A stretch of DNA of 64,000 nucleotides from Escherichia coli (GTDB lineage Bacteria > Pseudomonadota > Gammaproteobacteria > Enterobacterales > Enterobacteriaceae). Of this stretch, positions 27,852 to 31,595 are shown piece by piece. The stretch's first letter is position 1. Each line of letters opens with the position of its first letter. The translations under genes and the position numbers were made by a program. Below the pieces are notes generated by a model. The model had not been told where the DNA came from. It saw only the letters and a program-made list of their open reading frames with translations, and did no database searches. Location of the stretch: NCBI RefSeq assembly GCF_003334785.1, contig NZ_QOWV01000006.1; one strand, written 5' to 3'.

Positions 27852-29864
27852 TTAAGAGGCCAGCGTACCTTGCGGTGGTGCTTGCTCAAGTTGCGAAAGC
27901 GAGCAGTACAGCCGCCAGACAATTGCCGCCAGCTCACGGGCGGCAGGTTGATGATGACGGGCAAGGCTGTCGCAAATCCGCTGTAATTCTTCAAGTGTGG
28001 CCGCCAGTGATTTTTGCTGAACGCCACGCTCACTCATCACTCCCCGCAACAGTGAAATACAGTTATCCCGTACTCGCGATAACGGATCGGAACGCGATTC
28101 CCAGTCGCGCAATTGCCAGACAACATGAGAACAGTTCAGCAGCACTACACCCCAGCGTAATAACCAACGGCGAGCCAGCGCATCCTGGCTGTTACTCAAC
28201 TGACTGACGTGATGATAAGTGAGCGATTCAAATTCGCTTTCACTCAGTGTTGGATGGCGGCTTAGCTGATCGACAAAATCCCGGCGCAGCGCGCGAATAT
28301 GGCGGCGGCTTTTACGAGCATCCGATCCTGGACGCAGAATGGCGAACGCTAACCACGCCAACGCGACGCCAACGATTTTTGCCAGATTATCGTTAAGAAA
28401 ATCAGCAAAATCATACACCGGGGGATTAGTGACAGCGATAAAAGAACCCATAAAAACAATCAGTTGCCCCCACAATGCGGCAAATTTTGGCATCTGCAAT
28501 TTAAGAAGCTGCATTGTCGCCAGCAGTGGAAAGAGAAACAGTAAAAATTGCCACAGATCGCTAATCTGGACCATCAGACCAAATTTGACCACAAAGCTGA
28601 ATAGCGAAAGTAACACCAGCGTGCGCATCAGAAGTGACAACGACTTAAACGGTGCTGCGACGGCGGAGTAGAGTACGCAGCTAATTGCTGCCAGCGTTAA
28701 TGCATTGGCACCGGCATCCCATTGCGAAGCAATACTCCATGCGCCAATCATCATCAACGTACAAAATGTACGCAGCCCGCTCCACATAGCTTCGGCGTTA
28801 TCGGTATGACGAGCCAGGCCGGATGTCCGTGGGAGTCTGGTATGATCATCTACACCGCTTTGCAGACGATGTAATTCCTGACTACTTTGCAGATAAAGGC
28901 GGCAAAAATAACGTAGTCGCTGCCAGAAGGCGACGTGCCGATAGTCGGCGACGTTGGTCGGGCGTAGCGGGGCGATAATACGTGCGACGGTGTAAACATC
29001 TGTTTGCGAACTGGCGAGCGCCGTCAGCAACTGTTCGAGAATTTCTCGTGTGGCACCTGGCGGTGAGGGCCAGTTGAGCAACATACGTCGCAGGCTGGAG
29101 ATGACACTGGTCATACGTAATTGCTGGTGGAGCAGCGCATTAAGGCGCGCGTTTTGCTGGCGAAAACGATAGTGGCTCCAGAAAGCCTGGATACGCAGCA
29201 AATTCATGGTCAGTATCTGCCCAATCACCCCTTCATGTGCTGCACGAATGGCATCGGTTGTTTCAGGCTGCCAGAGTAAACTGGCATGTTCCAGTAATCG
29301 GGCGTGCATGTTTTTCAATGCGGTTAAAAGGGCAGTAGCATCGGAACTGCTCGGCAGGATCATCATCATCATGCCGCCGCACAAAATACCGACTATTACC
29401 TCGCAAACGCGCGCCTGAGCGATATCCCACAGCTGGCTGGCCTCAGTAATATTAACCATCGGAAAGGCGATGATGGCAGCCGTGTAGCCCGCCAGTTGAA
29501 ATGCATACGCGACGTTATTCGTGAAGTGCGCACAGGCCCAGGTACAAAAGCCAAGCCACGCCGACATGCTCAATAGAAAAAACCACGGCTCATTGAGCGT
29601 ATGCCCGGCAAGAAGCAGTGCCGCAATGGCTCCGAGCAAACTGCCAGCGATGCGTCCGAGGCTTTTGCTGATAACACCGCCAACGGTGGGAAAGCTAACC
29701 ACTGCAGCCGAGGTCATCGCCCAATAGGGTTCATCCAGATTTAAATAATAGGCAACCGTCAGCGCCAGACACATGGCAATGGTATTGCGTAACGCATAAC
29801 GCCATTGCGCCAGCGTGGCCCTGAACCAGGGCAAATTGCGCAAGGACCATGACGATGCGTTCAT
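27852..29864 (-). CDS. ydhK: FUSC/AaeB-like putative efflux transporter YdhK
   Basis: 670-aa ORF with two hydrophobic membrane blocks; start overlaps ydhJ stop; matches ydhK. Confidence 0.88.
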
Positions 29865-30721
29865 TATTGACCTACGGCAATGCTACAGGTGGTGCCCGAC
29901 ACCAACGTGACATCGCCTGGGACTTTATCCAGCGCAAAGCGGACGGGAACGCGTTGGGCGAGTCGAACCCAGGGGACGTTAGGTTTAACATCCGGAATAA
30001 GGCTTGAGTCACTTTCAACGCTCTGATCATAAATCGCCCGACCGATACTGGAAACGTGACCCTGTAACGTTTTGTTATCACTATAGAGGGTAATTTGTGC
30101 TGGTGCACCTTCGCGGATATGGCGCAACTTGGTTTCTTCAAAATAACCAATGACGTAAAACGAGTGGCTGTCGACAAGGGCAAACAGCGGTTTCCCGGTA
30201 TCAGCGTAATCGCCGATGCGGGTAGTAAGGTTAGTCACCCATCCACTCACCGGGGCGCGAATTTCCGTTTGCGCCAGTTGCCATTGTGCCTGTTTCAGCG
30301 TCGCCTGTGCGGCATCAACACTGGCCTGCATCGCTTTAACATTGAGGTTAGCGGTATCGAGTTCTTCGGCAGAAATAAAATTTTGTGAGAGATGACGACG
30401 ACGATTCGCTTCGTTATTGGCTTTTGCGAGGTCAGATTGCGCTTTCGCCAGCTGAGCCTGTGCGTTCAGCTCGGCGATCTGAAAGGGCGTTTTATCGATC
30501 GTGAGCAGAAGATCCCCCGCGTTAACCAGCTGGTTGTCTTTTATATTCAGCTCAACAATACGTCCCGACACCTGTGGGGTGATAGAAACCTGTTCTGCGC
30601 GTATTTTCCCGTCGCGTGTCCACGGAGATTGCATGTAATAATTCCACAGCCACCATCCGGCAAGAACCGCAACTACCGCTACAATGATTGTTGAGAAATA
30701 CTTAATTGTTTTAATTGACAT
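29864..30721 (-). CDS. ydhJ: membrane fusion protein (HlyD/AaeA-like) YdhJ
   Basis: ORF 29864-30763; internal ATG at 30721 gives 285 aa starting MSIKTIKYF and avoids overlap with ydhI; single N-terminal TM then coiled-coil region. Confidence 0.85.
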
Positions 30722-30723
30722 AG

Positions 30724-30960
30724 TTACCACGCAATCAGTATTGCCAGAGCAAGGCAAACGCAAATCGCAAACAGCGATAAATCCATTAACAAGGGATGCC
30801 AGATGTCACCGGCGTAGATCCAGCCACGAAGCAGGCGGTGTACGACAAGCCAGATGACGAATCCAAACGCGAATGCTTTGAAAAACGGAGGAAAGTAGAC
30901 GGACGCACCGAACACCAGATCTTGTAAGGGCAATCCTGTTGCATTGAGCATAAACTTCAC
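30724..30960 (-). CDS. ydhI: DUF1656 small membrane protein YdhI
   Basis: 78-aa hydrophobic ORF, first gene of ydhIJK, divergent from slyA. Confidence 0.82.
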
Positions 30961-31132
30961 AAAGTAGATTCCTTTACGACCGAATATATTGCGTTAGATT
31001 AATAAATATTCTTTAAGTGCGAAAAATTTACGCGCAATTTCTGAAAAATATGTCTGACGGTAACCAAATGCAGCAATACATTTGTTTTAGCAATACAATT
31101 GCTGCACACTATTCTAAAAGCCGCATAATATC

Positions 31133-31144
31133 TTAGCAAGCTAA
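31133..31144. promoter_or_regulatory. SlyA box (TTAGCAAGCTAA palindrome)
   Basis: Perfect 12-bp palindrome TTAGCAAGCTAA 17 bp upstream of the slyA start; a second inverted repeat AGCAAT-aca-ATTGCT lies at 31089-31103. Confidence 0.75.
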
Positions 31145-31160
31145 TTATAAGGAGATGAAA

Positions 31161-31595
31161 TTGGAATCGCCACTAGGTTCTGATCTGGCACGGTTGGTGC
31201 GCATATGGCGTGCTCTGATAGACCATCGCCTGAAACCGCTGGAGTTAACACAAACCCATTGGGTTACGTTACACAATATCCATCAGTTACCTCCAGACCA
31301 GTCGCAAATTCAACTGGCAAAAGCGATTGGCATCGAGCAGCCATCACTGGTCCGTACTCTGGACCAACTGGAAGAAAAAGGGTTAATTTCGCGTCAAACT
31401 TGTGCCAGCGATCGTCGGGCTAAACGTATTAAACTGACGGAAAAGGCAGAGCCGCTGATCAGCGAAATGGAAGCTGTTATTAACAAAACCCGCGCGGAAA
31501 TATTACATGGCATCTCCGCAGAGGAACTGGAGCAACTGATTACGCTCATCGCAAAACTTGAGCATAATATCATTGAGTTACAGGCCAAAGGGTGA
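31161..31595 (+). CDS. slyA: MarR-family transcriptional regulator SlyA
   Basis: TTG start at 31161 has AAGGAG (31149-31154) at 6-nt spacing and gives 144 aa [12 protein letters not shown]...; the ATG at 31155 abuts the SD. Confidence 0.92.

Follow-up and report, generated by a model that had tools for sequence, protein, structure and literature searches.

The slyA gene of Escherichia coli encodes a MarR-family regulator and is divergent from ydhIJK, an operon that encodes a putative efflux system. A single exact copy of the SlyA consensus box lies in the region between them, and the question raised by this locus is which of the two transcription units the box serves. We analyzed the locus in a 64,000-nucleotide (nt) stretch of E. 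coli DNA from contig NZ_QOWV01000006.1 (the window; all coordinates refer to it unless stated otherwise), for which an earlier note had proposed a SlyA-box-controlled ydhIJK operon. Our results indicate that the box is most likely an auto-operator of slyA. We also think it likely that the locus as a whole pairs a MarR-family regulator with a divergent efflux operon, with the box serving primarily as the slyA operator and ydhI under the control of weaker, separate sites.

The locus is that of E. coli K-12, and it is already in the literature, including binding by SlyA, homology to AaeAB and a first substrate. Strain MG1655 is 100% identical to the window over 27600-31800, and a match to this segment is present in all 5,426 of the 5,426 complete E. 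coli genomes. Our analysis therefore carries little weight as a discovery: the genes, the consensus site, binding to the exact intergenic fragment, the AaeAB homology and a first substrate have all been published. What the literature leaves is a contrast, in that SlyA seems to be strongly repressing for ydhIJK in Salmonella and Klebsiella and mildly activating in E. coli K-12.

The SlyA consensus box and its conservation

The region between ydhI and slyA contains the following features.

30961-31160, no strand assigned: divergent regulatory region, 200 bp, 31.5% GC
31161-31595, plus strand: slyA, MarR-family regulator of 144 aa, TTG start
31133-31144, plus strand: SlyA consensus box TTAGCAAGCTAA, exact match, 5 nt upstream of the slyA Shine-Dalgarno sequence
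31066-31160, plus strand: slyA-proximal conserved block, 82-100% column identity in at least 21 genera, holding CATAAT, the box and the slyA ribosome-binding site
30994-31005, no strand assigned: SlyA-like site TTAGATTAATAA of the TTAN6TAA type, 9 of 12 positions matching on the minus strand, centered 39.5 bp upstream of the ydhI GTG
31087-31098, plus strand: SlyA-like site TTAGCAATACAA, 9 of 12 positions matching, overlapping the AGCAAT/ATTGCT repeat
31069-31106, no strand assigned: repeat set made up of a 9-nt inverted repeat, a nested AGCAAT-aca-ATTGCT and a 13-nt direct repeat
31111-31139, minus strand: sigma-70-like promoter match toward ydhI (a consensus match only), with -35 TTGCTA inside the box, a 17-nt spacer and -10 TAGAAT (31116-31111)

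The 200-bp extent given to the divergent region by the earlier note is exact when slyA starts at the RefSeq TTG at 31161. The adjacent and divergent slyA gene, together with a pseudo-palindromic operator candidate in the shared intergenic region, are the features of a MarR-type pairing.

The box occurs in one exact copy in the window, counting both strands, compared to 0.03 copies expected from shuffled sequences. With up to two mismatches allowed, four sites are found and 5.3 are expected, which is the chance level. The box had been described as a perfect palindrome. Its position stands, and it is the single exact copy, but the perfect symmetry does not: arms of TTAGC and GCTAA surround a central AA, and the two bases in the middle are not the same in the reverse complement, TTAGCTTGCTAA. 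The box is thus self-complementary at 10 of 12 positions and matches the SlyA consensus at 100% on one strand and 83% on the other. The same 12-mer is the published SlyA consensus, and a candidate site is listed 22 bp upstream of slyA (Curran 2017 Table 3, PMC5797941); TTAGATTAATAA is listed in that paper as a candidate site 161 bp upstream of slyA. Both listed sites reproduce on the window, with centers 22.5 and 161.5 bp before the slyA TTG; 178.5 bp separate the center of the box from the ydhI start. The SlyA consensus is said to derive partly from footprints on the Salmonella slyA promoter, and the match of the box to that consensus is therefore partly circular. We take the 12-mer to be the DNA in the SlyA-DNA crystal structure (3Q5F family).

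The evidence favors a slyA start codon at 31161 and not at 31155. The spacing from the Shine-Dalgarno sequence fits the TTG at 31161, and in Cedecea sulfonylureivorans (locus L043, 4985-5012) a 1-nt deletion turns the slyA TTG into ATG and shifts the upstream ATG out of frame. The protein scores 277.4 bits against the NCBIfam equivalog NF002926 (cut-off 120), in an alignment that begins at residue 3 of the ATG-started open reading frame, and it matches the Salmonella ortholog in the Protein Data Bank (PDB; E 2e-79; entries 3Q5F, 3QPT and 3DEU).

To compare the locus across the Enterobacteriaceae, we used 80 loci that encode close relatives of SlyA, each from a different species and together representing at least 21 named genera; conservation of alignment columns was computed over 61 distinct intergenic sequences. 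ydhI, ydhJ and ydhK are divergently upstream of slyA in 78 of the 80 species. The 12-mer box is exact in 78 species and has one mismatch in the remaining two, and it begins 28 bp before the slyA start codon in all but one of the 80 (79/80), the exception being Cedecea with its 1-nt deletion. Intestinirhabdus alba lacks ydhIJK and has sodC directly upstream of slyA, and in Kosakonia oryziphila ydhIJK is reduced to remnants. In both species the slyA-proximal block of ~95 bp and the box are intact despite the loss of ydhIJK. Because the box is invariant at a fixed distance from slyA and is kept where ydhIJK has been lost, it tracks slyA and not ydhI. The proposal that this box controls ydhIJK is not supported in the form it was given, both on this ground and because the box is so far from ydhI.

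Conservation across the intergenic region is bipartite. It is 0.36-0.48 over 30961-31068 (the ydhI ribosome-binding site excepted), rises to 0.82-0.85 in 31069-31132, and reaches 0.999 in the box and Shine-Dalgarno region; the 31 nt from the box to the TTG are ~100% conserved as one block. This pattern of divergence agrees with that described previously (Will 2019, PMC6401476). The slyA-proximal half is thus frozen across at least 21 genera and the ydhI-proximal half is free to evolve, which offers a guide for experiments and does not define a new kind of system. The -10-like CATAAT at 31124-31129 is TATAAT in most genera. We suggest that the box acts mainly on slyA itself because it is located just after this conserved TATAAT/CATAAT and 5 nt before the Shine-Dalgarno sequence. 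A scan of the intergenic region for sigma-70 promoters gave no plus-strand match, i.e., none in the direction of slyA. We considered CATAAT/TATAAT as the slyA promoter and do not claim it, as there is no good -35.

Of 5,424 E. coli genomes, 5,406 share the 200-bp intergenic region at an identity of 99% or more; for the surrounding 4.2 kb this holds in only 2,395 of 5,426. The non-coding 30961-31160 is under tighter constraint than the flanking genes. One chicken liver isolate, SC516, has ISApl1 in the ydhI-slyA intergenic region (NZ_CP025048.1; positions 3453-4427 of its locus, with the break near window position 31040). The element stands between ydhI on one side and the box with its conserved slyA-proximal block on the other.

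Regulation of ydhIJK by SlyA

Control of ydhI probably runs through SlyA sites that are weaker than the box and specific to lineages, in the ydhI-proximal half of the region, which evolves fast. From its sequence and position, 30994-31005 is a candidate ydhI-proximal operator in E. coli, and it is poorly conserved between genera (mean 0.36). Of five further species scanned, one, Enterobacter asburiae, has an aligned counterpart, TTGGCAATATAA, of the 9/12 site at 31087-31098; it too matches at 9 of 12 positions. In two Salmonella enterica subspecies the sole 9/12 SlyA-like site is TTGGTAAGCAAA, which aligns to E. coli 31057-31068, where 6 of 12 positions match the consensus. The salicylate-sensitive ydhI operator of Salmonella is a 12-bp site, 75% identical to the consensus (9/12), near the -35 of ydhI (Will 2019, PMC6401476). 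The difference at TTGGTAAGCAAA might relate to the opposite directions of ydhIJK regulation in Salmonella and E. coli. The box might also contribute to ydhI, through the conserved promoter match in the ydhI direction that has its -35 inside the box. The high-affinity site is 178.5 bp from the ydhI start, and yet it carries part of a possible promoter for the pump.

That SlyA binds this region is established. E. coli SlyA binds the ydhI-slyA fragment in an electrophoretic mobility shift assay (EMSA; Curran 2017, PMC5797941), and the EMSA primers TC65 and TC66 map to 31138-31160 and 30961-30981, so that the published fragment is exactly 30961-31160, the one on which the earlier note had proposed such an assay. 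In Salmonella, SlyA represses ydhI ~19-fold and slyA ~5-fold in vitro, and salicylate relieves the repression (Will 2019, PMC6401476). ydhIJK is also among the SlyA-repressed genes identified by RNA-seq, and 4-hydroxybenzoate and 2,3-dihydroxybenzoate are SlyA ligands (Will 2025, PMC12506092), their effects having been seen, like that of salicylate, with the SlyA of Salmonella. In Klebsiella lacking the SlyA ortholog KvrA, YdhJ is up 45- to >100-fold (10.1101/845925). The general proposal of SlyA control over the operon is thus well supported, by binding in E. coli, repression in vitro in Salmonella and the kvrA effect in Klebsiella; the part that lacks such support is the assignment of the box to ydhI. 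The checks suggested in the earlier note have largely been done in the literature in some form, efflux assays in E. coli excepted.

Based on these results, we propose that SlyA dimers bind the 200-bp intergenic region, with the box acting mainly on slyA and the weaker sites, such as 30994-31005 in E. coli, probably acting on ydhI. Salicylate, 4-hydroxybenzoate and 2,3-dihydroxybenzoate bind SlyA and release it from the DNA, and the pump is thereby derepressed. We infer that the box is mainly the operator of slyA, and we likewise infer that SlyA represses ydhIJK in E. coli as it does in the other genera.

Several points weigh against this proposal. The EMSA does not distinguish between the possible SlyA sites within 30961-31160, and repression has been demonstrated only in Salmonella and Klebsiella. 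In E. coli K-12, overproduction of SlyA raised ydhIJK transcripts 2.2-fold (Curran 2017, PMC5797941), and Corbett 2007 announces in its title that slyA is positively autoregulated in E. coli. Where the sites stand with respect to the ydhI and slyA promoters of E. coli is a prediction. The efflux-related phenotype of ydhIJK comes from Salmonella only, and export by the E. coli proteins and their need for an outer-membrane channel are putative. Lastly, the box is contiguous with the invariant Shine-Dalgarno sequence and start codon, and its conservation is not cleanly separable from a constraint on the mRNA leader.

The increase in ydhIJK transcripts could mean that E. coli SlyA counters silencing by H-NS at the ydhI promoter, with net activation, and that the ydhI-proximal half of the region has been rewritten in Escherichia. 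ydhIJK carries the mark "O" in a table of the same study, which we take to denote an H-NS dataset (PMC5797941), and Escherichia has the lowest GC of the 61 sequences in the ydhI-proximal half (0.30-0.31, compared to a median of 0.42). The sole 9/12 site of the two Salmonella subspecies, which corresponds to a 6/12 sequence in E. coli, fits as well. However, the increase is a small one, seen with slyA in multicopy, H-NS action at ydhI is putative, and the Klebsiella preprint refers to direct repression of E. coli ydhIJK by SlyA (10.1101/845925). In addition, the ydhI-proximal half of Klebsiella is also low in GC (0.33), yet repression there is strong. We regard counter-silencing as a serious possibility that nonetheless falls short of being the probable one. 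We are somewhat more doubtful of a reading close to the wording of the earlier note, in which the box is a shared, bidirectional operator at which one SlyA dimer controls both slyA and ydhIJK, the latter with a 5' leader of ~140 nt. The intergenic region has a single sigma-70-like match, at 31111-31139, which points to ydhI, with its -10 in columns that are 90-100% conserved and its -35 in fully conserved ones, and in Salmonella a SlyA site is near the -35 of the ydhI transcription start (Will 2019, PMC6401476). That Salmonella site, however, is 75% identical to the consensus, whereas the box is 100% or 83% identical depending on the strand. The block is unchanged where ydhIJK is gone, and the long leader would have to cross the poorly conserved half. 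Furthermore, the promoter scan of the region gave fewer matches than shuffled sequences did (2 compared to 4.7), and a consensus match is therefore weak evidence.

Two further explanations concern the conserved sequences themselves. The invariance of the box could reflect a constraint on the slyA mRNA leader and translation initiation (the box, the Shine-Dalgarno sequence and the unusual TTG) and not protein binding. Conservation of the 31 nt from the box to the TTG as a single block is what this would produce, but the 12-mer equals an independently defined high-affinity SlyA site and the fragment binds SlyA (PMC5797941). A leader constraint is also compatible with SlyA binding, and both may hold together; as a replacement for it, we find the explanation very improbable.

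The other explanation, which we consider nearly as improbable, is that the repeat set at 31069-31106, including AGCAAT/ATTGCT, serves as operator for a further regulator that acts on slyA or ydhI. The earlier note had pointed to AGCAAT-aca-ATTGCT as a second inverted repeat, and the repeat is indeed present at 31089-31103, within a larger set that the note had missed: a perfect 9-nt inverted repeat (TGCAGCAAT at 31069-31077 and ATTGCTGCA at 31098-31106) and a 13-nt direct repeat (31072-31084 and 31089-31101). The columns around AGCAAT/ATTGCT are 80-100% conserved, and 22 of the 61 sequences keep 8 or 9 of the 9 complementary pairs of the outer inverted repeat. The 6-nt repeat, however, is not a conserved element. 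Only 5 of 61 sequences have arms that pair at every position, and we rejected it as a conserved operator on this ground. Its symmetry needs a T at 31099, a position at which fewer than 10% of the 61 sequences match E. coli and at which no other genus of the 20 shown has a T. Most genera have CATTTG...CAAATG instead, fully complementary in 20 of 61 sequences and at 5 of 6 pairs in another 27. The symmetry of the repeat set, as judged from these alignments, is Escherichia-specific. In addition, 13 inverted pairs with 6-nt seeds are found in 241 bp, and in a region of 31.5% GC a 6-nt inverted repeat is thus unremarkable alone. The conserved columns are equally explained by promoter elements or by SlyA half-sites, e.g., the overlapping TTAGCAA at 31087, and the factor that would act on the repeats is putative. 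A PhoP-box-like TGTTTT-N5-TACAAT at 31083-31099, considered in view of the PhoP control reported for Salmonella slyA, was not used, as its second half-site fits poorly in E. coli.

The ydhIJK efflux operon and neighboring genes

The genes of the operon and the features that flank the locus are as follows.

30724-30960, minus strand: ydhI, 78 aa, GTG start, DUF1656 small membrane protein, AaeX paralog
29864-30721, minus strand: ydhJ, 285 aa, HlyD-type periplasmic adaptor, AaeA paralog
27852-29864, minus strand: ydhK, 670 aa, FUSC/ArAE-type inner-membrane transporter, AaeB paralog
ending at 27851, plus strand: sodC (RefSeq)
downstream of slyA, minus strand: slyB (RefSeq)
31606-31633, plus strand: terminator-like stem-loop of 12 bp, between the convergent slyA and slyB

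Pfam matches agree with the functions that the earlier note had given to the three proteins. YdhK matches FUSC (PF04632; TC 2.A.85) over residues 20-661, covering model positions 1-658 of 660 (E 5.4e-140), and a Kyte-Doolittle scan found 12 hydrophobic segments, six in each of two blocks (27-169 and 363-510), with a hydrophilic domain after each block. The topology expected of a transporter is thus present. YdhJ matches HlyD_D23, HlyD_3 and Biotin_lipoyl_2, scores 135.2 bits against TIGR01730 (cut-off 94.9), and has one N-terminal membrane anchor, a transmembrane-like segment at 8-26. YdhI matches DUF1656 (PF07869; E 1.8e-14) and has two hydrophobic segments. DUF1656 proteins have been described, from cofitness in other bacteria, as an efflux pump component that acts with a membrane fusion protein (MFP) and a FUSC protein (Price et al.), and ydhI is the first gene of such an MFP and FUSC operon. 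A PDB sequence search with YdhK gave no relative at E <= 0.01, and a literature search for FUSC or AaeB structures gave unrelated matches only.

The near-zero spacing that had been noted in the operon is accurate: the gap between ydhI and ydhJ is 2 nt, and the ydhJ stop codon and the ydhK ATG overlap by 1 nt, as TAATG. The three genes are probably translationally coupled. The term tripartite fits the operon only loosely; the operon encodes a transporter, an adaptor and a small DUF1656 protein. There is no gene for an outer-membrane factor in the operon or among its annotated neighbors (sodC, ydhF, slyA, slyB and anmK), and a channel encoded elsewhere is presumably needed.

YdhIJK probably exports aromatic carboxylic acids, of which fusaric acid, in Salmonella, is the sole demonstrated case. 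On fusaric acid, Salmonella ydhIJK mutants grow late and slyA mutants grow better (Will 2019, PMC6401476). The substrate of the system had been called unknown. This no longer holds for fusaric acid resistance in Salmonella, and it still holds for the physiological substrate: the physiological function of YdhIJK is still to be determined (Will 2025, PMC12506092). One could imagine that YdhIJK is a dedicated exporter of an endogenous SlyA ligand (4-hydroxybenzoate, 2,3-dihydroxybenzoate or a related aromatic carboxylate) and that the box, Shine-Dalgarno sequence and TTG form a bidirectional operator module in which the box is also the -35 of a long-leader ydhI promoter. We consider this combination unlikely. 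If true, the locus would act as a closed homeostatic loop and set how much of the signal that tunes genome-wide counter-silencing by SlyA is present in the cell.

In one human rectal-swab isolate, ydhJ carries an IS3-family element and is left as two pseudogene fragments (NZ_CP091756.1; positions 2265-4435 of its locus), and a second human isolate (H2) has the same features under its match. At least some clinical strains can do without the YdhIJK pump.

In the RefSeq annotation the order is sodC, ydhK-ydhJ-ydhI, slyA and slyB, followed by anmK. The strong stem-loop at 31606-31633 is probably a bidirectional terminator shared by slyA and slyB. At the other end of the locus, sodC and ydhK (stop codon 27852-27854) are convergent and their stop codons abut, with zero bases between them (27849-27854). 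A terminator of either gene must therefore sit within the coding sequence of the other. Scans with Rfam and for tRNAs found nothing within 27852-31595. Elsewhere in the window there is a full-length Rfam match to the enterobacterial small RNA STnc550 (14069-14459, plus strand; 396 bits, with a gathering score of 48). On the minus strand, two tRNA-Val(GAC) genes stand in tandem at 5320-5396 and 5401-5477, and a plus-strand Rfam match to the antisense RNA family HPnc0260 (5196-5358) overlaps the first of them.

Comparison with known systems

One close comparison outside the ydhIJK orthologs is aaeXAB (yhcRQP), taken here from NC_000913.3. The resemblance had been pointed out in the earlier note and appears in the literature as a comparison with AaeAB (Will 2025, PMC12506092). 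The gene order is alike (DUF1656, HlyD adaptor, FUSC transporter) and there is a divergent regulator in both, although AaeR is a LysR-type activator and SlyA is of the MarR type. YdhI and AaeX are 33% identical, YdhJ and AaeA 41% (E 5e-68), and YdhK and AaeB 24% (E 1e-27). All three Ydh proteins score below the cut-offs of the NCBIfam Aae equivalogs (AaeB, NF007916, 120 bits compared to 870; AaeA, NF007850, 243 compared to 400; AaeX, NF008615, 21 compared to 82), and they are thus paralogs of AaeXAB and not a second copy. Aromatic carboxylates are substrates or inducers of both systems; those of AaeAB include 4-hydroxybenzoate, 6-hydroxy-2-naphthoate and 2-hydroxycinnamate as substrates (PMC12506092).

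Other systems share parts of this design. As in marRAB and emrRAB, a winged-helix dimer acts on a pseudo-palindrome in its own promoter region and controls efflux, and phenolic or aromatic acids, salicylate among them, release it. In contrast, slyA is divergent from the pump operon and not inside it, and SlyA has a further, large role in countering silencing by H-NS. The mdtNOP (sdsRQP) operon of E. coli, like ydhIJK, pairs an HlyD adaptor with a FUSC-family transporter, and YdhJ matches the MdtN model (E 4.5e-60). mdtNOP encodes its own outer-membrane factor, MdtP, whereas ydhIJK encodes none.

The slyA-ydhIJK locus of Salmonella Typhimurium and the kvrA-ydhIJK locus of Klebsiella pneumoniae have orthologous genes in the same divergent arrangement. 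SlyA is 86-91% identical. Two subspecies of S. enterica, as well as Klebsiella species, have an identical SlyA box, again 28 bp from the slyA start. The differences are found in the ydhI-proximal half, which is only about 40% conserved and in which the candidate 9/12 site of Salmonella is not conserved in E. coli, and in the direction of regulation, with strong repression in Salmonella and Klebsiella and mild activation in the published in vivo data for E. coli.

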